DNA of 27,314 nucleotides, taken from the NCBI GenBank assembly GCA_026014495.1, contig JAOZIF010000106.1, forward strand, positions 1 through 27,314, read 5' to 3'. The DNA comes from Candidatus Bathyarchaeum sp. Its GTDB lineage: Archaea; Thermoproteota; Bathyarchaeia; Bathyarchaeales; Bathyarchaeaceae. The notes below the pieces were generated by a model, which worked only from the letters and a program-made list of their open reading frames with translations, was not told the origin of the DNA and ran no database searches. The translations under genes and the position numbers were made by a program. Below, piece after piece: positions 11,336 to 22,643 of the stretch (the stretch's first letter is position 1; every line of letters starts with the position of its first letter).

Positions 11336-11659
11336 TTGCTGCTGGAATCTCTTTTTGCCTTTCTAATTATCTTAATCCTTGCAACACTACTTTACTTATT
11401 CAGCCGTCTGTTAACCCAAAAATCACCTGACACCGAAGAAAAAAGCGCAATGTACGCCTGTGGAGAAAAAGTCTTCTCAAAAAGACTTCTTGTCAATGTA
11501 ACTCTCTACAAGTACCTCATATTCTTCGTAATCATAGACTCTCCTGCACTTATTCTAGCCTTTGCAGCCTTAGCCCTAGAAATGATTAATCCGTTTAGTT
11601 TACTGATTTATTTGGGCATAATTTTAGCGGCAGATTTGCTGCTTTTGGGAGGATATTAA
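11336..11659 (+). CDS. nuoA: NuoA/FpoA-like membrane subunit of the hydrogenase complex
   Basis: Three hydrophobic segments; K.AMYACGE loop (YECG-type); FFVIID; first gene of the operon. Confidence 0.75.
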   Translation: MLLESLFAFLIILILATLLYLFSRLLTQKSPDTEEKSAMYACGEKVFSKRLLVNVTLYKYLIFFVIIDSPALILAFAALALEMINPFSLLIYLGIILAADLLLLGGY

Positions 11660-11676
11660 AGACGCCCGACCTAGGC

Positions 11677-12090
11677 TTGTTGAAATGGGCTAGAACAAAA
11701 TCGCCTTGGTTGCTTCACTTCAACACAGGAGCATGCAACGGATGCGACATCGAAGTTGTTGCACTGCTCACACCCAGATACGATGTTGAACGTTTCGGCA
11801 TAAAACTGGAGCCCTCGCCCCGTCATGCAGATGTTCTTGTTGTAACTGGGCCTGTGACAAAGCAGTGTGCACCACGGCTCAAGATGATTTATGAGCAGAT
11901 GCCCTCGCCAAAATTTGTCATAGCCGTAGGTGCCTGTGCATGTTCTGGCGGAATATTTCAGGACTGCTACAACATAAGTGGGCGACTCGACGAGATAATT
12001 CCGGTAGACGTATATATCCCGGGTTGTCCTCCAAAACCCGAAGCAATAGTTCAGGGCGTTGCTAAACTGCTTGGAAAACTGAAGGGATAA
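11677..12090 (+). CDS. nuoB: Group 4 [NiFe]-hydrogenase small subunit (NuoB/MbhJ/HycG family)
   Basis: ACNGCDIE (hydrogenase-type CxxC rather than the tandem CC of complex I), SPRHAD, GACACSGG, PGCPPKPE. Confidence 0.92.
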   Translation: MLKWARTKSPWLLHFNTGACNGCDIEVVALLTPRYDVERFGIKLEPSPRHADVLVVTGPVTKQCAPRLKMIYEQMPSPKFVIAVGACACSGGIFQDCYNISGRLDEIIPVDVYIPGCPPKPEAIVQGVAKLLGKLKG

Positions 12091-12093
12091 ACC

Positions 12094-13767
12094 ATGGAAA
12101 AGTTTGAAACTGCTGTAGATGTTCTCAAGAACAATTTGGCTGATGCTATTGTTGAGCTAAAGGTTCCTAGGCCCAGAAAAGCCTACATTCTTCTTAAGTC
12201 TGAACGCCACAGAGATGCAGTCTCTTTGCTTCTGAAGCATGTTGAAGAGTCGATGCTTTCGACAATAAGTGGCGTTGACTTGGGAACTGAGATAGAGTTA
12301 AACTACCACATGGTTTGTGGGGGAACAGTAACCCTCAAAAATCGGGTTCCACGAGAAAAACCTGTTACAAAAACAATTACTGATATTTTGCCTGGAGCAA
12401 ATTTGTATGAGCGCGAAGTATTCGACCTTTTAGGCGTCGTTTTTGAGGGGCATCCTAACCTAGAACGGTTGCTACTTCCTGACGGCTGGCCTAAAGGAAA
12501 CTATCCTCTCAGAAGAGATTGGACGCCTCCACTTATTCAAGAAAACGATTCGGGTTCTGAGGAAGATTCGCAGAATAATTCAGAGGAAGATGATGTTGGG
12601 TCACTAGTTAGTGTTGTTGTGGGTCCTCAGCATCCAGTTTTGCATGAACCTGAGCGATTCAATTTCACTGTTGATGGCGAGACTGTTGTAGATGTTAAGC
12701 CCCGTCTTGGCTATGTTCATAGGGGTATTGAAAAAGCGGCTGAGCGTATGATGTACTTCCAAGACGTGTTTTTGGTGGAACGTATATGTGGTATCTGTAA
12801 TGCTGCTCACACAACCGTTTTCTGTCAAGCTGTTGAGGACATCGGAAACATTGAAACTCCGCCTCGGGCTTTATACTTACGTACCATTGTGCATGAGTTG
12901 AACAGGGTTCACAGTCACCTTTTGCTGCTTGGTGTTGGTGGTCACCTGCTTGGGTTTGAAGCACTATTCCAGCATGTTTGGCGTGACCGTGAGCCAGTGA
13001 TGGATATTATTGAGCAAATTACTGGCAACCGTTTGATGAGCGGCTTTAACACAATCGGCGGAGTAAGGCGCGATATTAATCCCAATACCGTCGAGAAAGC
13101 CCTAAAGACTGTCAAGGCAGTTAGGAAACGGGCTGTTTTCTACAAGAACGTGTTCGAGGAAGATGCAACATTGAGGCTCCGAACCGAAGGTGTTGGCGTG
13201 TTAAGCAAAGAAGTTGCTCTGAAGCTATGTGTTGTTGGTCCTGTTTTGAGAGGGTCAGGTGTTGCTTCGGATGTCAGAAAAGATGATCCTTACGCAGCGT
13301 ATGCTGAAATTCCTTTCAATGTACCCTGTTATGATGAGTGTGACACGTGGGCTCGGCTGATGGTCAGGGTTGACGAGGTGGTGGAAAGCTTGAACATCCT
13401 AGATTATGCGTTTAACAACCTTCCGGGTGGACGTTTGCGGGTTAGGGTTCAACGTAAAATACCTGAGGGCGAGGCTGTTAGTCGTGTTGAAGCTCCTCGA
13501 GGAGAACTTATACATTACGTTAAAAGTGATGGAACTGCGTATCCTTACAGGGTTAAGGTTAGGGCTCCAACTTTGGCGAACCTTCTGGCTTTTCCAGACG
13601 CTATTCGTGGCGGCTACATCGCTGACATTCCCTCTGTGATGGGAAGCTTAGACCCCTGCTTTTCTTGCACTGATCGTATGGCATTCGTTGATACTGCAAA
13701 TGGTCAAAAATGGCGCTGGAGCCTTGACGACGTAAACAGTCACAAAAACCGGAGAGTGCTACTCTAA
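12094..13767 (+). CDS. Group 4 [NiFe]-hydrogenase large subunit, fused NuoC+NuoD (HycE-like architecture), with C-terminal extension
   Basis: NuoC motif ERE.FDLLGV.FEGHPNLERLLLP..W...YPLR; GPQHP; GY.HRG.EK; L1 RICGIC (12781-12798); L2 DPCFSCTDR (13651-13677) plus a 29-aa tail. Confidence 0.93.
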   Translation: MEKFETAVDVLKNNLADAIVELKVPRPRKAYILLKSERHRDAVSLLLKHVEESMLSTISGVDLGTEIELNYHMVCGGTVTLKNRVPREKPVTKTITDILPGANLYEREVFDLLGVVFEGHPNLERLLLPDGWPKGNYPLRRDWTPPLIQENDSGSEEDSQNNSEEDDVGSLVSVVVGPQHPVLHEPERFNFTVDGETVVDVKPRLGYVHRGIEKAAERMMYFQDVFLVERICGICNAAHTTVFCQAVEDIGNIETPPRALYLRTIVHELNRVHSHLLLLGVGGHLLGFEALFQHVWRDREPVMDIIEQITGNRLMSGFNTIGGVRRDINPNTVEKALKTVKAVRKRAVFYKNVFEEDATLRLRTEGVGVLSKEVALKLCVVGPVLRGSGVASDVRKDDPYAAYAEIPFNVPCYDECDTWARLMVRVDEVVESLNILDYAFNNLPGGRLRVRVQRKIPEGEAVSRVEAPRGELIHYVKSDGTAYPYRVKVRAPTLANLLAFPDAIRGGYIADIPSVMGSLDPCFSCTDRMAFVDTANGQKWRWSLDDVNSHKNRRVLL

Positions 13768-13768
13768 G

Positions 13769-14764
13769 ATGGCCATTGACCTCATTTTTTTTGTGAGGAC
13801 ACTGGTATTTCCTGGATTCCTTTTCCTTTTAGTGTTGGTGCTCTTTTTTGACTGGTTTGAAAGAAAGGTTGCGGCTCGTTTCCAGAACCGCATGGGACCA
13901 TCGTATGCTGGTCCATTTGGTATCCTTCAGCCAATAGCTGATTACATTAAGCTGTTTTCGAAGGAAGACATTACTCCAAAGCAAACCAACAAGTTTTTGT
14001 TTGTTGTGGCTCCAATTCTTGCGTTTTCGCTCTTTGTTTTTGCCCTTTTTTACATCCCGATTGACGGCTCGAACGTGATTTTGGATTCAAGTTTCGAGGG
14101 CGATTTGCTTTTGGTTTTGCTTTTGGTGACTCTTGCTAATTTTGGAATTTTTCTTTCTGGTTGGGCTTCTTTGAATCCTTACAGTGGAATTGGTGCAACC
14201 CGAATTTTGACGCAGTTTCTTGGTTATGACATTCCTCTTATCCTTTTGGCGATTGGTCCTGCTTTTCTTGCAAAAAGTTTGTCCATTGTGAGTATTGCAT
14301 CTAGCCAAGTTACTGTTCCATTTATTTTGTTGATTCCTTGGTCTTGTGTCTTGTTTATTCTTGTTTTGCAGGCTGAGCTAGAAAAAGACCCCTTTGATAT
14401 TCCTCATGCAGAAACCGAGATTGTAGGCGGTTACGAAACAGAGTACAGCGGAAGAAAACTGGCTTTCATAAAGCTTTCAGAAGATTTCCAGTTCTTGATT
14501 GGTGCTTCTCTTGTCACTGTCCTGTTTTTGGGCGGCTTTCATGGGCCTGTTTTTATTGGACCTGCTGAATTTTGGTATGTTTTCTGGTTTATTGTTAAAA
14601 CTCTTGGTGTGGTGTTCATTTTAGAGTATGTGGGCAACGTGTCTGCCCGATTGCGTATAGACCAAGTTGTTCATGGCAACTGGAAACTGTTGATTCCTTT
14701 GTCTATTTTGTCTCTTGCTCTTACAATACTTGTTGAACCCTTGTTGCGGTCGGTGATTGGTTAG
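13769..14764 (+). CDS. nuoH: NuoH/MbhM-like membrane subunit
   Basis: ERKV.AR.Q.R.GP...G..QP.AD..KL..KE; AELEKDPFDIPHAETEIVGGYETEYSG; RLRIDQ. Confidence 0.93.
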   Translation: MAIDLIFFVRTLVFPGFLFLLVLVLFFDWFERKVAARFQNRMGPSYAGPFGILQPIADYIKLFSKEDITPKQTNKFLFVVAPILAFSLFVFALFYIPIDGSNVILDSSFEGDLLLVLLLVTLANFGIFLSGWASLNPYSGIGATRILTQFLGYDIPLILLAIGPAFLAKSLSIVSIASSQVTVPFILLIPWSCVLFILVLQAELEKDPFDIPHAETEIVGGYETEYSGRKLAFIKLSEDFQFLIGASLVTVLFLGGFHGPVFIGPAEFWYVFWFIVKTLGVVFILEYVGNVSARLRIDQVVHGNWKLLIPLSILSLALTILVEPLLRSVIG

Positions 14765-14776
14765 GAGGATAATTGT

Positions 14777-15178
14777 GTGACAAAAAAACGACGACGATTA
14801 CCCGCGCTGATAAAAGACATGGGCTCCTGTCTATTCAAAAAGCCCTTTACTCAAGAGTATCCTTTTGTTTCTGTGCAGGCTCCTGAAGGTTACCGCGGCA
14901 GACAAACTTTTGATCCTGAAAAATGCATCAGTTGTGGTTTATGTGAGCGAGACTGCCCTGCTAAGGCTATAGAACTTGTGGAAGTTTCTGGGAAACGGAT
15001 GCCCTATTTTTACCTTGACCGATGCATATTCTGTTATCAATGCGCGGAAGGTTGTCCAAGAAATGCAATACAGCTTTCTACAAATTTTGAGATGTCAACT
15101 ACAGAAAAAGACGAGTTGCTTGTAAAGGCAGAAGAATTTATTTCTAAACAAAACATCAGTTCGGACGAGGGACAATAA
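14777..15178 (+). CDS. nuoI: NuoI/MbhN-like 2x[4Fe-4S] subunit
   Basis: T..YP...YRG; CISCGLCERDCP and CIFCYQCAEGCP. Confidence 0.92.
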   Translation: MTKKRRRLPALIKDMGSCLFKKPFTQEYPFVSVQAPEGYRGRQTFDPEKCISCGLCERDCPAKAIELVEVSGKRMPYFYLDRCIFCYQCAEGCPRNAIQLSTNFEMSTTEKDELLVKAEEFISKQNISSDEGQ

Positions 15179-15179
15179 A

Positions 15180-15644
15180 ATGTGGCTTGAAACAGTTTTG
15201 GCTATTGGAATGGTGACTTCTGCGGTCTTCGCGATATATCTGAAAGAAACAGTTTCTTCGGTTTTGTCCCTGAGCACCATGATGATTTTGCTTGCTGTGC
15301 TTTACTTTAATTTGAATGCTCCGTTTGCTGCCATTTTTCAGTTGGCGTTAGGCACTGGAACTGCCGCAATTTTCCTTCTTGCTGGTGATTCGTTAACTAA
15401 GAAAAGTGACTTGAAAACATCCAGCAAAACCAAGTTTGTTGGGCTAATTGTTTCTGCTGTTTTATGTGTTCCTGTTATTGTTGGGACTGTGGCAACTGCG
15501 TCTTTGAGTGCTTCATTGGATTTGTCGATTTCTAGTGCAATATGGGAGTTTAGGGCAATCGATGTTCTTGCTCAAGGCTTAGTTGTTTTGACTGCTGCAC
15601 TTGGCGTAGTTATCCTTCTAAAAGAGGAACGGAGGCGCAAGTAA
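15180..15644 (+). CDS. nuoJ: NuoJ-like subunit (MbhD+MbhE-like)
   Basis: L.APFAAIFQL..G.G N-terminal half; WEFRAIDVLAQG C-terminal motif; positioned between I and K. Confidence 0.75.
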   Translation: MWLETVLAIGMVTSAVFAIYLKETVSSVLSLSTMMILLAVLYFNLNAPFAAIFQLALGTGTAAIFLLAGDSLTKKSDLKTSSKTKFVGLIVSAVLCVPVIVGTVATASLSASLDLSISSAIWEFRAIDVLAQGLVVLTAALGVVILLKEERRRK

Positions 15645-15980
15645 ATGGATTACATTATACTATCTGTTACTATATTGGCGATTGGAATAGTTGGATTGGT
15701 TACAAAACATGACTTGATCAAAATGCTGATCGCCATAGAAATGATTACTGCCGCAGCAACAATGAATTTTGTTGTTTTTGGTTCCTTAATGGAAAACTCT
15801 TTAGGTCAAGCCTTCTCGATTCTCGCTTTATCTGTTGACGCTTGCGTAACTGCTGTTGCTCTTGCACTTGCTATTGCAATCTACAAAAAACTAAACATCC
15901 GAGATGTTCGCGATCTATCGGAAATAACAGAGACCTCATCAGACAAAGAAACCCAAACCGTGGAGGAAGACCAAAAGTGA
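15645..15980 (+). CDS. nuoK: NuoK/MrpC-like subunit
   Basis: IGIVGL...LIKMLIAIEM; GQAF.ILA; three TM helices. Confidence 0.88.
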   Translation: MDYIILSVTILAIGIVGLVTKHDLIKMLIAIEMITAAATMNFVVFGSLMENSLGQAFSILALSVDACVTAVALALAIAIYKKLNIRDVRDLSEITETSSDKETQTVEEDQK

Positions 15981-18073
15981 TTCCGGTTGAGTACGCAGCG
16001 TGGTTATGCTGGGCGATTCCTTTTGCAGGTTCATTATTTGTACCTTTAGTTGCTAAGGTTCGTCGTAGAAGCGTTGGATGGTACGCGGTAGCCGTCACTT
16101 TTCTTGCGGTTGCATGTACACTCTCTTTGATTTCAGGTATGCTTGGTGGTCATGCTGATGCGCATGTGTATTCTATACCTTGGATGCCTGCTCTTAACAT
16201 TGATCTTAGTGTTCTTGTTGACCCGTTAAGCGTTATGATGGCAAACATTGCAGCCTGTATTGGCTTGCTAATCATGATTTACTCAGTAAACTATATGAAA
16301 AAAGAAAAGGCAACCCCTAGATTCTTTTTCTTTATGCTTCTTTTCATCGGGGGAATGCTTGGTTTAGTTATGGCCAACAATCTTTTGCAGATGTACTTTT
16401 TCTGGGAAACCGTTGGACTTTGTTCATACTCCCTTATCGGATTCTGGTACAGCCGAGATGACGCAGCAAAAGCAGGAATGAAAGCATTTATTGTAACAAG
16501 AGTTGGCGACATTTTCCTTTTACTTGGAATATTGTTGTTATATGTGAACACTGGCACCTTCAATTTTATGGAAATAAAGGAACTCATAGCCGCTGGGGCT
16601 GTTTCGGTTCCAATGTTAACTATATCAATTTTGATGCTGATTGGAGCTATCGGCAAATCTGCCCAAGTTCCGTTGCATGTATGGCTTCCAAATGCCATGG
16701 AAGGGCCATCACCTGTCAGTGCCCTTATTCACGGTGCAACAATGGTAAAAGCAGGAATCTATCTTGTGGCAAGAATCTACATCCTATTCTCGATAGTGCA
16801 ACCATGGTTAACAACAATCACCTATGTTGGCGGAATCACAGCTTTTCTTGCCGCAACCATGGCGTTGACCAGCTCAGACCTGAAACGTGTTCTCGCATTC
16901 TCAACAATAAGCCAGCTGGGTATGATAATGTCCGCGCTGGGAATAGGAACTGAGCTTGGTTGGTTCGCTAGCCAATTTCATGTAATCAGTCATGCACTCT
17001 TCAAGTCGCTTTTGTTTTTGTGTGCTGGAGTCATTATGCATGTTACTCACACACTTGACCTAAAGCAGCTTGGCGGTTTAAGAAAGGCAATGCCAATAAC
17101 TTTCATAGTGAGTGTTATTGGAGCGTTTTCTCTTGCTGGTATTCCGCCATTTAGTGGATTTTGGAGCAAAGACACCATATTTGAGGCTATAATATTAGCC
17201 AACAACGTTCCCTTGTTTATTTTGATATTTGGAACCTCTGTGCTAACAGCAATCTATAGTATACGCTGGATTTGTTCAGTTTTCCTTGGAGAAAGATCCG
17301 CGTTTCTGGCAGACCATCACATACACGACCCCAGCCCCATAATCTATGTGCCCCTTATCCTGTTGGCTGCTGCTTCATGCATTACAGGTTTCTTCAAAAC
17401 CCCACTAGAGCATTATCTTGGAGTACATGCTGAAGCTTCAATGTCTGGTGTACTTTTGGCAAGTGCAACTTCTGCTGTAATTCTTGCGATTGCAGTTCCT
17501 GTAGCCTATTATCTTTACTACAAAAAACGTGCAACTTCACTGTTTTTCGCAAGAAATCTTTTAAACAATCCACTTTATTTGTTAATATCTAATGGCTACT
17601 ATTTCGACGCCGTTTACAATAAAATCTTGAATGGAGTCATGGGTTTGGCACAATTCACCTGTAGAGTAATAGAACGCTCTGGAGTGCAGCAGTTCCCATA
17701 TGTTGTAGCATGTGGGGCTTCCAAGCTAGCCCAAGGTACACTAAACTATATCGAATCGTTTCTTGACCGATTCGTTTACGTCATAGCTGGTGGAGCTGTG
17801 ATTACTGCCCACAAAACCCATGTGCACCTTGACGCTTTTCTTGACCGCTTCTGCTACATTCTAGCCGGTGGAACCGTAGAGACTGCCCGAGTAACCCACG
17901 AATATATTGATTCATTCTTGGATAGAATGGTCTATCTTTTTGCAGGAAAAACTGTTGAGCATGGGCAGAAAATCAAGAAAATGCACCGAGGACCCCTGCC
18001 AGACTTTGTTTTGGCAGCCGCGCTCGGATTCTTCCTAATTGTAATATTACTATTATTAACTGCTTTGAGGTAA
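15977..18073 (+). CDS. nuoL: NuoL/MrpA-like antiporter-like subunit, about 698 aa from GTG 15977
   Basis: FFWE, GKSAQVPLHVWLP.AMEGP.PVSALIH.ATMV.AG, HALFK, GFWSKD; the GTG start overlaps the K stop (GTGA). The provided 15842 start is in frame but gives a non-homologous prefix. Confidence 0.92.
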   Translation: MIPVEYAAWLCWAIPFAGSLFVPLVAKVRRRSVGWYAVAVTFLAVACTLSLISGMLGGHADAHVYSIPWMPALNIDLSVLVDPLSVMMANIAACIGLLIMIYSVNYMKKEKATPRFFFFMLLFIGGMLGLVMANNLLQMYFFWETVGLCSYSLIGFWYSRDDAAKAGMKAFIVTRVGDIFLLLGILLLYVNTGTFNFMEIKELIAAGAVSVPMLTISILMLIGAIGKSAQVPLHVWLPNAMEGPSPVSALIHGATMVKAGIYLVARIYILFSIVQPWLTTITYVGGITAFLAATMALTSSDLKRVLAFSTISQLGMIMSALGIGTELGWFASQFHVISHALFKSLLFLCAGVIMHVTHTLDLKQLGGLRKAMPITFIVSVIGAFSLAGIPPFSGFWSKDTIFEAIILANNVPLFILIFGTSVLTAIYSIRWICSVFLGERSAFLADHHIHDPSPIIYVPLILLAAASCITGFFKTPLEHYLGVHAEASMSGVLLASATSAVILAIAVPVAYYLYYKKRATSLFFARNLLNNPLYLLISNGYYFDAVYNKILNGVMGLAQFTCRVIERSGVQQFPYVVACGASKLAQGTLNYIESFLDRFVYVIAGGAVITAHKTHVHLDAFLDRFCYILAGGTVETARVTHEYIDSFLDRMVYLFAGKTVEHGQKIKKMHRGPLPDFVLAAALGFFLIVILLLLTALR
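17750..17983 (+). repeat. Three tandem 78-bp (26-aa) repeats in the lateral-helix region of the L subunit, plus a degenerate 27-aa copy at 17669-17749
   Basis: FLDR Phe codons at 17759, 17837 and 17915 (78-nt period); consensus [IL][ED][SA]FLDR[FM].Y..AG..V. Confidence 0.9.
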
Positions 18074-18080
18074 AACAAAA

Positions 18081-19598
18081 ATGGAAACCCTATTAATTGC
18101 TTTGATGTTGCCTGCTCTGGCTATTCCAGTAGTGTATGGCATTGGAAAAAAATCTGCGAAAACTGCTGCTTTGATTCTTACATTAATTGTTTTGGTTAGC
18201 CTGTCTCTTTTGCTAACTTTGGTACCCACGGTTCTTAGTGAGGGACAATACATTGAATCGTATTATTGGATACCTACTTTAGGTTCGGCTTTCACGCTTT
18301 TTGTTGACGGAATAAGCCTGTCGTTGGCTATTGCCACATTAATACTTGTTTCAGCAACAACAGTATATTCAATAAACTATATGGAAGAGAAAAGTTCACT
18401 TCCAGAATATTTTGCGTTAATGAGCTTACTAACCATCGGGTTAATTGGAGTTTTCATAACCTCCAATCTTTTGCTCTTTTATTTCTGTTGGGAACTCATG
18501 CTTGTTCCAACATACTTTATCATAGGCGGCTGGGGATACAAGGACTCCTTCAAAACAGCCTTCAAATTTTTCATATTCACTCACGCTGGAGCAATCTTTG
18601 TTCTCTTAGGCATCGGCGCCATCTACATGCTCACCGGCACCCTTGACATATTCGAAGCCCAAGCCATTCTAGCCACCACAGTAGACCAAAGTATCTTACC
18701 TTGGGTGCTGATTTCGTTTGTTGCAGGATTTGCTGTAAAAATGGCTATTGTTCCACTTCATATGTGGCTTCCAGACGCGCACGGTGAATCACCTGCACCA
18801 ATGTCTGCACTCCTTAGTGGTGTAATAATTGGGGCTGGAGGATACGCTGTTTTGAGGATAGCTCTTGGAACCGTATACACTGCAATGGTGCCCGCAGGGA
18901 ACGAATTCTTGTTAGTGTTAAGCTTTTTCGGCGTATTATCCGCATTTTACGGGTCATTTTTGGCGTTAGCAGAAACCGACATCAAACGAATAATTGCTTA
19001 CTCTAGTATAAGCCACATGGGCTACGTTCTGTTTGCACTTTCCCTGTTTCCATCTTCCGAAGGAATCACTGGAGCAGTGCTCCATCTGGTTAACCATACC
19101 GCAAGCAAGGGGCTTCTCTTCTTGACCGCAGGCGCAGTCATGCACCAAACTGGCTTAAGAAACATAAATGACATGGGTGGTTTAGCTTCAAAAATGCCCC
19201 TAACCGCGATAGCAACTGCTATTGCAGCCTTTAGCATAGGTGGAATTCCACCGTTTGCATGCTTCATAAGTGAGTTCCACATTTTCGTTGGAGCTGTCAC
19301 CGCTGCTGGCGCAGATAGTTCATATTATTTGCCTACGATTTTGATGCTTATTGCAACTGTTTTCAGTCTCGCTTATGTCCTCAGATACTTCTGGAAAGTT
19401 TTCTTAGGGTCTCCCAAGGCAAAAACTGACGTTGAACCTGTTACAACCGATGAAACGGGTGAGCAAAAAACTAAGAATAATGACCCGTCAATGTTCATGC
19501 TTATTGCAATGCTTGCTTTGGCAGCGTTTGTTGTGATATTGGGAATTTATCCTGGAGTTTTCATTGATTTAATTCATGCTGTTACATCAATAATATGA
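18081..19598 (+). CDS. nuoM: NuoM/MrpD-like antiporter-like subunit
   Basis: FCWELM, FAVKMAIVPLHMWLPDAH.E.P, KRIIAYSSISHMG, NH..SKGLLF, ISEF. Confidence 0.92.
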   Translation: METLLIALMLPALAIPVVYGIGKKSAKTAALILTLIVLVSLSLLLTLVPTVLSEGQYIESYYWIPTLGSAFTLFVDGISLSLAIATLILVSATTVYSINYMEEKSSLPEYFALMSLLTIGLIGVFITSNLLLFYFCWELMLVPTYFIIGGWGYKDSFKTAFKFFIFTHAGAIFVLLGIGAIYMLTGTLDIFEAQAILATTVDQSILPWVLISFVAGFAVKMAIVPLHMWLPDAHGESPAPMSALLSGVIIGAGGYAVLRIALGTVYTAMVPAGNEFLLVLSFFGVLSAFYGSFLALAETDIKRIIAYSSISHMGYVLFALSLFPSSEGITGAVLHLVNHTASKGLLFLTAGAVMHQTGLRNINDMGGLASKMPLTAIATAIAAFSIGGIPPFACFISEFHIFVGAVTAAGADSSYYLPTILMLIATVFSLAYVLRYFWKVFLGSPKAKTDVEPVTTDETGEQKTKNNDPSMFMLIAMLALAAFVVILGIYPGVFIDLIHAVTSII

Positions 19599-19613
19599 CG
19601 AGGCGTACATTAA

Positions 19614-21095
19614 ATGAATATTATCGACATTCTATTACCAACAATAGTCTTCACGGTTTGCTCTTTACTAACCGTTCCACTTCTACGACTTGTACGAAAA
19701 ACCAAGTTTAATCCTCAACATTTCATGGTTGCTTGGGTACTTCTCACCTTTTCTGCAGCTGCGGCTGGAGTTTTTCGTATAGCAACAGAGTATTTTGGGC
19801 AGGCTGAGTCGTTTCTTCAGATTTCTTCTGTAGACACGCTTTTGGAGTCCATGTCAACGGTATTTCTTGTAGACACAGTTTCGGTTTACATGGTGATAGC
19901 CTACCTGATTGTAGGTTCAATCACGTGCCTGTATGGTGTTTTGCATGTTAGTTCACAGGAAAATCTGTCTGAAAGGTATTACGCGTTGATGCTTATGGTA
20001 ACTGGCACTGTGATAGCTGCTACTTTTTCAGGAGACTTGCTTACGCTTTTCATCTTTTGGGAGGCAACAGCGGCTGGTTCTTGTTTTCTTGTGGCTTACA
20101 AAAAGTCTCGTGAATCGCTTGAGTCTGCTTTGAAGTATCTGGTCATGGTCATTATAGCTTCTGGTTTTATAATCTATGGTTTATCCTTGATTTTTGGTCT
20201 TACGGGCTCGCTTAACTTCTGGACAGTTAGAGACGTTTTGTTAACTACTGCTAACCCTGAGCTTTTGGTGGTGGCTTTTGCTTTTATTATTGCAGGATAT
20301 GCTATCGAAACTGCTATTGTTCCGTTTCACATGTGGATGCCAGATGCTTACACTGCTGCTCCTGATTCTGCTTCAGCTTTCTTATCTTCAATAGTTGACC
20401 AAGGCAGCTACTATGTCTTGTTGCGTGTTTTGCTGTTTATTTTAACACCAACTGCGGTTGTTGATTGGCGATTTACTGTGGCAATATTTTCTGCGATTAC
20501 TATGACCGCGGGGAACTTGTTTGCGTTGGCACAGCAAAATGTTAAGCGCATGATTTCATACGTTTGTATTGCAGATATTGGCTATAACTTGATAGCTATT
20601 ACCAGCATCACTTCTATTGGTCTTATGGGTAACCTGTTCTTTTTCTTTGTTGCAGCCATGGAAACTGCTCTTGCCTTCATGGTTATTGGGGTTTTCAGAA
20701 AAATGGGATTGGAAACGTTAGATGATTTATCTGGTATGGGACGTAAAATGCCTTTGACCAGCGTGGCTTTTGTTTGTGCAGCTTTGTCGTTTTCTGGTGT
20801 GCCCCTGTTCGCAGGGTTCATCGCAAAGTACATGGTGTTTACTTCAGTTTTGCAGTCAAGCGTTGCGTGGTTAGCTGTGGTAGGCGTTCTAAACTCGGTT
20901 CTGCAAACATCTTACTTCCTAAGAGTGATACATTACTTCTATGCCAAACCCGCGAAAAGTGACGTACCATTCAAGGAGCCAAAAAAGTTGCTGGTGCCAA
21001 TTTATTGTTTGGTTGTCATAATTGTTGTTCTTGGATTATATCCTGATTTGGCGCTAGATTTGCTCTCTGCTGCTGCGGCATTGTTGCCTACGTAA
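19614..21095 (+). CDS. nuoN: NuoN/MrpD-like antiporter-like subunit with a divergent charged axis
   Basis: FIFWE, ESLESALKY, VPFHMWMPDAY..AP, KRMISY, S..GVP..AGF.AK; last membrane gene in the operon. Confidence 0.85.
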   Translation: MNIIDILLPTIVFTVCSLLTVPLLRLVRKTKFNPQHFMVAWVLLTFSAAAAGVFRIATEYFGQAESFLQISSVDTLLESMSTVFLVDTVSVYMVIAYLIVGSITCLYGVLHVSSQENLSERYYALMLMVTGTVIAATFSGDLLTLFIFWEATAAGSCFLVAYKKSRESLESALKYLVMVIIASGFIIYGLSLIFGLTGSLNFWTVRDVLLTTANPELLVVAFAFIIAGYAIETAIVPFHMWMPDAYTAAPDSASAFLSSIVDQGSYYVLLRVLLFILTPTAVVDWRFTVAIFSAITMTAGNLFALAQQNVKRMISYVCIADIGYNLIAITSITSIGLMGNLFFFFVAAMETALAFMVIGVFRKMGLETLDDLSGMGRKMPLTSVAFVCAALSFSGVPLFAGFIAKYMVFTSVLQSSVAWLAVVGVLNSVLQTSYFLRVIHYFYAKPAKSDVPFKEPKKLLVPIYCLVVIIVVLGLYPDLALDLLSAAAALLPT

Positions 21096-21143: not shown

Positions 21144-22643
21144 TTGGCAGCAAAAAAAGGCAACCTAATAGCATATAATGATTTGGAAAGTAAAATCATT
21201 AACTCTGGATTTTGTACCTTCTGTGGAGCATGTGAAGCGGCATGTCCTGTTCATGCGATAAAAATAGAGGGCTACAAAGTTGAGCACTCTGATTGCTCTA
21301 AACACATTGATTCCTGTCCGATATGTTATGAGATTTGTCCCCATTCTGATGAACTTGTTTCTGAAAGCCTAAAGTTTGTTTCAGACTCGCCTACAAAACG
21401 CGAAGGTTTAGGGTATTACAGAAGAATTCTGCTTGCACAAGCTGCAGACCCAGAGCTTAGAAAGCTTGGGCATGGTGGTGCTATTGTTACTACGCTTTTA
21501 ACAAACGCCATAGACACTGGGATGATAGATAGTGCGATTGTTTCTCAGGCGGAAACCAATATTCCAATTAAACCTAAAGCCCTTGTTGGTGTGGTTCCAG
21601 ATGACGTGTTTTCTGCTGTTGGGAGCAAATTCTTTCCATCATCTGTAGCTCGAGCTTATGGAAGTGCAGTTTATGAGTATGGAAAAGGCGATATTGCGTT
21701 CGTTGGGGTTCCTTGTCATGTGTTGGCTCTTCGTAAGCTTGAGGCTTGGGAACATAAAATCACTGGAAACCTAAAGGTGATAATTGGGCTCTTTTGTTTC
21801 TGGACACTTTCTTTTGGGCACCTGCTTGATTACCTGTCAAAAACTTACAACATTAACCCCGACGAGATAAAACGGCTTGATATAGTAAAGGAGTTGATAG
21901 TTCAAACCGACAAAGGTACAATAACCGTTCCATTGTCTGAAGTTAAGCCGCACATTTTAACTAGCTGTGAAACCTGCACTGATTTTACTTCAGAGTTAGC
22001 TGACATTTCTGTTGGAAGTGCTTATCCTCTTAAGGAGTGGTCTACAGTGATTATTCGAACAAAGGCTGGAGAGGACTTCTTTTATTCTGCAGTAGAGGCG
22101 GGGGTGATAAACACGGGCGTAATAGAGCTTGAGCCAGACGCTTTTGCGCATGTGATTGAGACTGCAGTGAATAAACGAAAAACTGCACTAAAAGAGCTAA
22201 ACGAAATGAAGGAAGCATATGTTCCTGTTCCAGTTAAGCCTTTACAGGAAATTTCTATTCTCTCCAAGTTTAAAGTGAAGGATGTTATGTCCAAGAAACT
22301 CAAAACAGTGTCTCCAGATTTTACTGTTAGTCAACTCTTGGATTTTATGGCTAAGCATCATCACACGGGGTATCCTGTTGTTGATGAAAGCGGAGACTTC
22401 ATGGGACTCGTCGCGTTGGAGGATGTTGTGAAGGTTGAGAAAGAGAAAAGAGATGAAGTTCTTATTCGTGACATCATTCAAAAGAATCCTGTTGTTATTT
22501 TTCCTGAAGAGCTTGCTTTGGATGCCTTCAAAAAGATGAGGGTTCATGATGCGGTTCGTATTGCGGTTGTTGACAACGCTAATCCAAAAAAAATAATTGG
22601 TATGCTCACTAAAACTGATTTGCGACACATTCTAAGTGACTAG
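21144..22643 (+). CDS. FpoF/FrhB-family (coenzyme F420 hydrogenase beta subunit-like) flavoprotein with N-terminal 2x[4Fe-4S] domain, fused to a C-terminal CBS pair
   Basis: CTFCGACEAACP and CPICYEICP; GGAIVT, GSKF, VGVPCH, IGLFC, CETCTDFTSELADISVG, WSTVIIRT..G; CBS pair from about 22269 (VKDVMS...YPVVD...G.V...D; I.....V...AVVD...GMLTKTDL). Confidence 0.9.
   Translation: MAAKKGNLIAYNDLESKIINSGFCTFCGACEAACPVHAIKIEGYKVEHSDCSKHIDSCPICYEICPHSDELVSESLKFVSDSPTKREGLGYYRRILLAQAADPELRKLGHGGAIVTTLLTNAIDTGMIDSAIVSQAETNIPIKPKALVGVVPDDVFSAVGSKFFPSSVARAYGSAVYEYGKGDIAFVGVPCHVLALRKLEAWEHKITGNLKVIIGLFCFWTLSFGHLLDYLSKTYNINPDEIKRLDIVKELIVQTDKGTITVPLSEVKPHILTSCETCTDFTSELADISVGSAYPLKEWSTVIIRTKAGEDFFYSAVEAGVINTGVIELEPDAFAHVIETAVNKRKTALKELNEMKEAYVPVPVKPLQEISILSKFKVKDVMSKKLKTVSPDFTVSQLLDFMAKHHHTGYPVVDESGDFMGLVALEDVVKVEKEKRDEVLIRDIIQKNPVVIFPEELALDAFKKMRVHDAVRIAVVDNANPKKIIGMLTKTDLRHILSD

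Follow-up and report, generated by a model that had tools for sequence, protein, structure and literature searches.

The 27,314-nucleotide stretch analysed here (contig JAOZIF010000106.1, hereafter the window) belongs to a genome of Bathyarchaeia, as its nearest database homologues are labelled Candidatus Bathyarchaeum and B. tardum CP122380 is among the named genomes that matched it best. It carries a tightly packed operon that we assign, from its gene content, to Hfo, an 11-subunit complex-I-like [NiFe] hydrogenase of Bathyarchaeia, and the last gene of this operon encodes HfoN, an antiporter-like subunit resembling NuoN. In HfoN, three residues of the central axis that are basic in Escherichia coli NuoN (K217, K247, and H305) are replaced by the acidic residues E232, D262, and D321, located in transmembrane helices (TM) 7, 8, and 10, respectively. 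Current models of complex I rest on buried lysines, namely the Lys of the ion pair between the TM5 Glu and the TM7 Lys, the central TM8 Lys, and a TM12 Lys, which together would pass charge along the membrane arm. HfoN offers a natural test of how antiporter-like pumps work, with the acidic triad kept invariant over a whole order-level radiation and with both the fold and the adjoining pumps M and L still intact. As far as the literature searched shows, it is this charge-inverted N axis that is new, the Hfo complex itself being already known.

An acidic axis in the HfoN subunit

HfoN, a protein of 493 residues (P0001), matched PF00361 with an E value of 1e-57 over residues 139–430, which cover the TM4–TM13 core. 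Its AlphaFold2 (AF2) model, built from 132 sequences (predicted local distance difference test 94, predicted template modelling score 0.94), presented the 14-TM fold with discontinuous TM7 and TM12, and it superposed on MrpD, NdhB, and NuoN with Z scores of 47–50 and a root-mean-square deviation (rmsd) of ~2 Å over ~470 residues. The best structural match was MrpD (PDB 7qru_D, Z 50.3), whose TM7 Lys is K219 in B. pseudofirmus, as cited in PMC13073174, so that MrpD is expected to keep the canonical Lys. The domain, the predicted fold, and the presence of both the TM5 Glu and the TM12 Lys support the assignment of HfoN to the antiporter-like superfamily (PF00361; NuoL/M/N, MrpA/D).

At the level of individual families, the best NCBIfam match was TIGR01770 (NuoN), with 255.4 bits, below the cut-off of 332.6, and HfoN also lacks the TM7 Lys and the central TM8 Lys of canonical NuoN/ND2. 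The MbxH-type family NF006241, two cluster representatives of which (P0205 and P0231) share the TM7 Glu, gave 220 bits, below its cut-off of 645 bits; HfoN has Glu in TM7 as in this family, but Asp in TM8. Compared with E. coli NuoN/ND2 (PDB 7z7s_N, 3rko), HfoN is alike in fold (Z ~47, rmsd ~2.3 Å), in operon position, in the broken TM7 and TM12, and in the retention of the TM5 Glu, the TM12 Lys, and the conserved TM6 Lys (K174). In contrast, it has Glu instead of Lys in TM7, Asp instead of Lys in TM8, Asp instead of His in TM10, and Phe instead of Tyr/His in TM11, and its host complex is a [NiFe] hydrogenase and not a quinone reductase.

Axis positions were assigned from a MAFFT alignment of HfoN, the M subunit of the window, four orthologues, and E. 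coli K-12 NuoN, NuoM, and NuoL, and were mapped independently by phmmer against E. coli and through the PDB-search alignments to MbhH and mycobacterial NuoN. All of them concurred in placing E232, D262, and D321 opposite K217, K247, and H305, with invariant anchors (VPFH.W.PD, KR..(S/A)Y, and GF..K) flanking the axis positions. In the model, TM7a (residues 215–232) stops exactly at E232 and is followed by the canonical helix break (233–240), D262 and D321 lie in the middle of TM8 (251–275) and TM10 (310–331), and K405 stands directly past the TM12 break (395–399). The initial annotation of this gene, made by eye, had named the same three exchanges and the starts of their codons (20307, 20397, and 20574), all of which proved exact in the alignments and the model, and its statement that the TM5 Glu (FWE) and the TM12 Lys (FIAKY) remain holds for E150 and K405. 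In addition, the genus-level group of the window carries a further Glu in TM11, at residue 350, where other Hfo lineages have Thr.

That these exchanges should reflect an artefact, such as misalignment, a pseudogene, or an assembly error, is hardly conceivable. Misalignment was rejected on the agreement of MAFFT, phmmer against PDB and E. coli, and the secondary structure of the AF2 model, which puts the residues at the canonical nodes. Besides the concurrence of three independent alignment methods, the open reading frame (ORF) is intact within an intact, tightly packed operon, and the same residues occur in more than 200 independent sequences. All that could be set on the other side were two fragmentary cluster representatives, each deviating at one site (P0126 at TM8 and P0136 at TM10).

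Conservation and surroundings of the acidic triad

The E/D/D triad was found in 119/119 close homologues (62–91% identity) and in one further homologue of 49% identity, in 30/30 species-level genomes (45–87% identity), and in 80/80 named genome loci, so the conservation across orthologues that the initial annotation had put forward as a check is complete in these sets. The record names of the metagenome-assembled genomes (MAGs) behind these 80 loci point to the coast (B. tardum), to hot springs (DRTY), to peat (palsa, bog, SPRUCE), and to soil in Denmark (MFD). Codon usage at the three sites was mixed, with 62 GAA and 18 GAG for E232, 52 GAC and 28 GAT for D262, and 34 GAC and 46 GAT for D321; this synonymous variation at each site indicates that selection acts on the residue. 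Invariance of the triad combined with turnover of its codons led us to reject decay or a pseudogene, and bears out the earlier suggestion that three concerted swaps are unlikely to be decay. The charge swap in HfoN is thus a selected rewiring kept under strict purifying selection.

Outside the clade, identity dropped from 49% to 36% or less among 1.84 billion cluster representatives, with nothing in between. The rarity of the acidic residues was estimated on 155 antiporter-like domains from the nearest non-Hfo cluster representatives, in a survey limited to the best 150 representatives. The TM7 position was occupied by Lys in 145 of these domains and by Glu in 5, and the TM8 position by Lys in 136 and by Glu in 5. 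An acidic TM10 residue was found in 0/155 and the three-acid triad likewise in 0/155, with two acids present in a single domain. In the phylogenetic tree, HfoN sequences formed a monophyletic clade (support 1.0), sister to NuoN-type sequences; the stem leading to it measured 0.81 substitutions per site, compared with a median internal branch of 0.10.

The search for the triad in related subunits, also proposed in the initial annotation, had a divided outcome: a single TM7 Glu in MbsH, no swaps in Hyf/Hyc, and the full triad in neither. MbsH of the Pyrococcus furiosus MBS complex (PDB 6u8y_H), an archaeal relative of complex I, resembles HfoN in having Glu (E219) instead of Lys at the TM7 break, and this residue has been interpreted as part of a proton pump (PMC7684303); however, the central TM8 Lys is still present in MbsH (K250) and its TM10 residue is not acidic, whereas HfoN inverts all three. 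A triad shared with Hyf/Hyc was rejected, as none of E. coli HyfB, HyfD, HyfF, and HycC has acidic residues at the triad positions. The exchange of one Lys for an acid is therefore a recurrent event among archaeal relatives (MbsH and group-4 hydrogenase-type complexes), with HfoN as the extreme case.

To see what else distinguishes the clade, 34 of its members were set against 112 canonical N-like representatives. The clade-specific invariant positions were R121, A154, Y229, E232, D262, Q263, S265, Y266, C318, D321, N325, T330, N340, F343, F393, Y406, T410, and Q431. Half of the non-triad positions (8/16) lay at most four residues from an axis position (binomial P = 1.4e-4), and most of these eight changes bring in a hydrogen-bonding side chain no further than about a helical turn from a new carboxylate. 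These form a polar shell made up of Y229, of Q263, S265, and Y266, and of N325, each about one helical turn or less from a new carboxylate, which has co-evolved with the triad. A new buried basic residue that could compensate for the acids was looked for in the HfoN clade and none was found, the sole new basic clade-specific residue being R121, at the end of TM4.

A proposed proton relay and its rivals, a cation site or a silent pump

In E. coli NuoN, proteoliposomes of the K247A and K395A mutants reach ~10% of the wild-type activity or less, and K217A retains about half of the NADH oxidase activity (PMC13073174). As K247A nearly abolishes activity, the natural replacement of K247 by Asp is not trivial, and the swaps in the triad imply that the coupling chemistry of HfoN would be unlike that of canonical NuoN. 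The initial annotation had offered either a Na+/K+ site or a different coupling mechanism; the second of these is supported by our analysis and the first is not, given the c-ring types, the habitats, and MbsH, as detailed below.

The reading that we favour, and to which we give an even chance, is a proton relay of carboxylates in HfoN that would prolong the E-channel across N as far as K405. Titratable residues are retained at each node of the axis, with inverted sign, and N would thus keep lateral proton conduction through a chain of buried, largely protonated carboxylates. The E-channel of subunits H, A, J, and K, including the acidic residues E32 and D65 of HfoK, which by homology would adjoin the N axis, would continue via E150, E232, D262, and D321 to K405, and the latter would hand over to the Lys/His chemistry of M and L; this order of the arm takes N to be adjacent to K. 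The coupling signal would be a moving negative charge (a proton vacancy) and not the opening of a Glu-Lys ion pair, and the E-channel and N would act as one unit rather than as two separate pumps, an arrangement that would suit a couple such as ferredoxin/H2, with its small driving force. In complex I, the E-channel (NuoH/A/J/K) is itself a lateral chain of uncompensated buried carboxylates, which the HfoN axis seems to us to resemble, although it is made of small subunits and not of the antiporter-like fold.

Several lines of evidence argue for such a relay. The sequence and model of HfoN preserve the fold, with both of its broken helices, as well as the TM5 Glu and the TM12 Lys, and at TM12 an acid can already stand in for a base, to judge from NuoM (Glu) and NuoN (Lys). 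The TM3 Asp of HfoK, three residues before E72 of E. coli NuoK, is conserved in Hfo and absent from other Bathyarchaeia K subunits; along the arm, acids thus extend from K through N to K405, beyond which M and L return to Lys/His chemistry. The polar shell and the lack of a new buried base count in its favour as well. E219 of MbsH has been published as part of a proton pump (PMC7684303), and Glu occurs in TM7 or TM8 of other archaeal [NiFe] complexes. The invariance of the triad at 45–91% identity over several habitats, in a long-stemmed monophyletic clade, is also consistent with this role. In addition, the window genome (93% complete) has just three antiporter-like genes, all of them in Hfo. 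Three points weigh on the other side. Burying as many as four or five carboxylates without compensation would be electrostatically costly, a cost that a bound cation would relieve; the losses in K247A and K395A show that these positions matter, not that a carboxylate can substitute there (PMC13073174); and the contact of N with K is taken from homology and gene order. If HfoN still conducts protons, the titratable chemistry of the nodes would outweigh their sign, which would constrain electrostatic-wave models.

The relief offered by a cation leads to a different proposal, which we regard as unlikely: E150, E232, and D262, with the oxygens of Y229, Q263, S265, and Y266, would bind Na+ or K+ in the middle of the membrane. 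N might then translocate Na+ or exchange Na+ for H+ in place of a Mrp/Mbh-type Na+ module, a role that we find similarly doubtful. The uncompensated carboxylate cluster with its gained Ser, Tyr, Gln, and Asn side chains does resemble cation sites, the window genome holds no further antiporter-like genes, and Hfo lacks MbhABCF-type genes (PMC7886697). In contrast, MbsH, interpreted as part of a proton pump, and other archaeal group-4 hydrogenase-type complexes show individual Lys-to-Glu swaps at these positions too, and the triad is invariant in peat, bog, soil, and hot-spring MAGs as well as in coastal ones, by their record names. We know of no antiporter-like subunit for which Na+ transport along this axis has been demonstrated. 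Finally, B. tardum grows without added NaCl, although its medium still contains Na+ (PMC10477458).

A further indication came from the ATP synthases of eleven Hfo-bearing genomes, in which the A/B subunits were searched with PF00006 and the c subunit with PF00137, the Na+-type c-ring being recognised by the motif Q...E(S/T) (PMC4320612). No match to either family was found in the window genome or in five other Hfo genomes (92–98% complete), the six being G000, G202, G235, G288 (two contigs), G032, and G253; an ATP synthase was likewise not found in some lineages by Loh et al. (PMC7886697). With more than half of the Hfo genomes (6/11) lacking a match, no link to a Na+ economy emerges. Hfo may even be the main membrane energiser of many of these archaea, and may be the only ion-motive machine found in the six genomes without an ATP synthase match. 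The five other genomes encode an A-type ATP synthase, and since no c subunit was found in the window genome, those of its congeners were used. In G090 and G199 (same genus) and in G157 and G193 (genus g9), the c subunit has Glu followed by Ala and no Gln in helix 1, and is thus of the H+ type, whereas G071 has a c-ring with the Na+ motif (Q...ET/ES), the one genome in this survey that speaks for a cation site. As the triad is constant over genomes with H+-type, Na+-type, or no matching c subunits and over habitats, it does not track the coupling-ion signature or salinity, which weakens the Na+ reading. The earlier proposal of a Na+/K+ site replacing the Mrp Na+ module hence found no support. 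That HfoN is an in-line cation module, with a complex-I-type arm moving Na+ through an antiporter-like subunit, seems improbable; if true, Na+ coupling would have a new route, a third solution beside the distal Mrp/Mbh module and the rotary c-ring.

Another explanation dispenses with transport through N altogether. HfoN would translocate nothing and serve as a scaffold that holds M and L, its acids contributing to packing or assembly, which we consider quite improbable; the corresponding benefit, a lower ion/2e- ratio fitted to the weak ferredoxin/H2 couple, appears equally improbable. The energetics from ferredoxin to H2 would permit ~1–2 ions per 2e- by our own estimate, and 2 H+ were assumed for Hfo by Loh et al. 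(PMC7886697). Moreover, E. coli preparations lacking NuoN (Delta-NuoN) keep part of their activity (PMC13073174), and HfoM, like HfoN, has lost the TM8 Lys. However, a dead channel should drift towards hydrophobic or variable residues, and here, despite synonymous turnover, neither the three buried carboxylates nor their polar shell varies down to 45% identity, with the TM5 Glu, the TM12 Lys, and the broken helices all retained. HfoN also has a bearing on the question of how a chassis with three pumps is fitted to the narrow energy span between ferredoxin and H2.

The Hfo operon and related complexes

The operon occupies positions 11336–21095 of the forward strand in the order A-B-CD(fused)-H-I-J-K-L-M-N, according to Pfam and NCBIfam family matches (Table 1). 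It thus has eleven subunits encoded by ten genes, C and D being fused, in the nuo/fpo order and with three antiporter-like subunits. The D part of the fused protein keeps both [NiFe] motifs, L1 (RICGICNAAH) and L2 (DPCFSCTDR), the cysteines of which are also kept in six orthologous Hfo operons. Hfo is known from the genome-based description by Loh, Herve and Brune (2021) of an Fpo-like 11-subunit [NiFe] hydrogenase (PMC7886697), and it was noted in the B. tardum genome too (PMC10477458). The complex of the window has the same gene order, [NiFe] motifs, absence of a Mbh-type Na+ module, and origin in Bathyarchaeia, and as a complex no difference was apparent. No extra Mbh/Mrp-type gene lies in the operon, where each gene matches a Nuo A–N family; no separate search for MrpE/F/G was made. 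The terms "NuoN", "FpoN", and "antiporter" have zero occurrences in the Hfo paper (PMC7886697), and no description of the residues of the Hfo membrane subunits or of a charge-inverted N axis was found in the literature searched; the acidic N axis is therefore, as far as that literature shows, an undescribed property of a described complex.

Table 1. Features of the Hfo operon in the window and axis residues of HfoN (AF2, AlphaFold2; TM, transmembrane helix)
Feature	Position	Strand	Description	Evidence
Hfo A, B, fused CD, H, I, J	11336..15644	+		Family matches, translation
HfoK	15645..15980	+	NuoK-like; E32 in TM2 (15738–15740), D65 in TM3 (15837–15839)	PF00420, alignment with E. coli NuoK
HfoL	15977..18073	+	NuoL-like, canonical Glu/Lys/His..Lys/Lys axis	NF005141/TIGR01974, translation
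HfoM	18081..19598	+	TM5 Glu, TM7 Lys, TM10 His, TM12 Glu kept	
HfoN	19614..21095	+	NuoN/MrpD-like antiporter-like subunit, acidic central axis	PF00361, AF2 model, structural matches
E150 (HfoN)	20061..20063	+	TM5 Glu, retained; FWE, E. coli NuoN E133	Alignment; 80/80 loci, GAA/GAG variation
E232 (HfoN)	20307..20309	+	Last residue of TM7a, replaces TM7 Lys; AIETAIVPFH, E. coli NuoN GFKLSLVPFH (K217 to E232)	Alignment, model; 80/80 loci
D262 (HfoN)	20397..20399	+	Mid-TM8, replaces central Lys; IVDQGSYY, E. coli NuoN ASKIAIFG (K247 to D262); with clade-specific Q263, S265, Y266	Alignment, model; 80/80 loci
D321 (HfoN)	20574..20576	+	Mid-TM10, replaces bridging His/Gln (NuoN H305, NuoM H322); CIADIGY, E. 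coli NuoN SISHLGY (H305 to D321); with clade-specific N325	Alignment, model
E350 (HfoN)	20661..20663	+	TM11, extra acid found only in the genus-level group of the window	E in 19/80 loci, T in 60/80
K405 (HfoN)	20826..20828	+	TM12b Lys, retained; FIAKY, E. coli NuoN K395; sole basic residue left on the N axis	Alignment, model

Regarding the other antiporter-like subunits, HfoM lacks the TM8 Lys (K265 of NuoM) in all the Hfo operons examined, the position being taken by Gly in the window and by Ser or Glu elsewhere, and it has a NuoL-like His...Lys pair in TM11 (H..SKG). HfoM thus appears, from its sequence, to combine NuoM and NuoL features in a hybrid axis, and its interpretation as a dead pump because of the missing TM8 Lys was rejected in view of the TM11 pair. 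By our own reading of the frame, HfoL probably starts with the GTG at 15977, overlapping the stop codon of HfoK. Its C-terminal part (17669–17983) contains three tandem copies of ~26 residues (FLDRF.Y..AGG.V...) before the last TM, at the lateral helix HL. HfoJ (15180–15644) was barely over the Pfam cut-off for NuoJ (34.0 versus 33.2 bits), and NuoJ was reported as not found by the authors of the B. tardum genome.

The acidic triad is not a companion of the [NiFe] site, a possibility that was rejected because other Bathyarchaeia complexes with intact L1 and L2 motifs keep the TM7 Lys. In these complexes, C and D are split and the order is K-N-L, and many of them have Glu in TM8. Such a second type of complex (L040, L041, L043–L045, and L051) is present in many Bathyarchaeia, with the genes A-B-C-D-H-I and, on either the same strand or the other one, K-N-L; the [NiFe] cysteines are retained in several, the N-like subunit has Glu for Lys in TM8, and the K subunit is devoid of the TM3 acid. 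Yet another [NiFe] complex-I-like operon, with two antiporter-like subunits, was located at L138:1285–11533 (GCA_053996695.1), where an unannotated gene for 702 residues lies between C and D and V-type ATPase I and c genes follow directly downstream. Its last subunit (P0133) has Glu in TM7, TM8, and TM12, but Lys in TM11.

Finally, HfoN is followed in the window by a gene for an FrhB/FpoF-like flavoprotein fused to a CBS pair (21144–22643), and such an FrhB/FpoF-CBS fusion also adjoins Hfo in three of the six further genomes examined (L034:502–2022, L036:449–1981, and L035:11696–13333).

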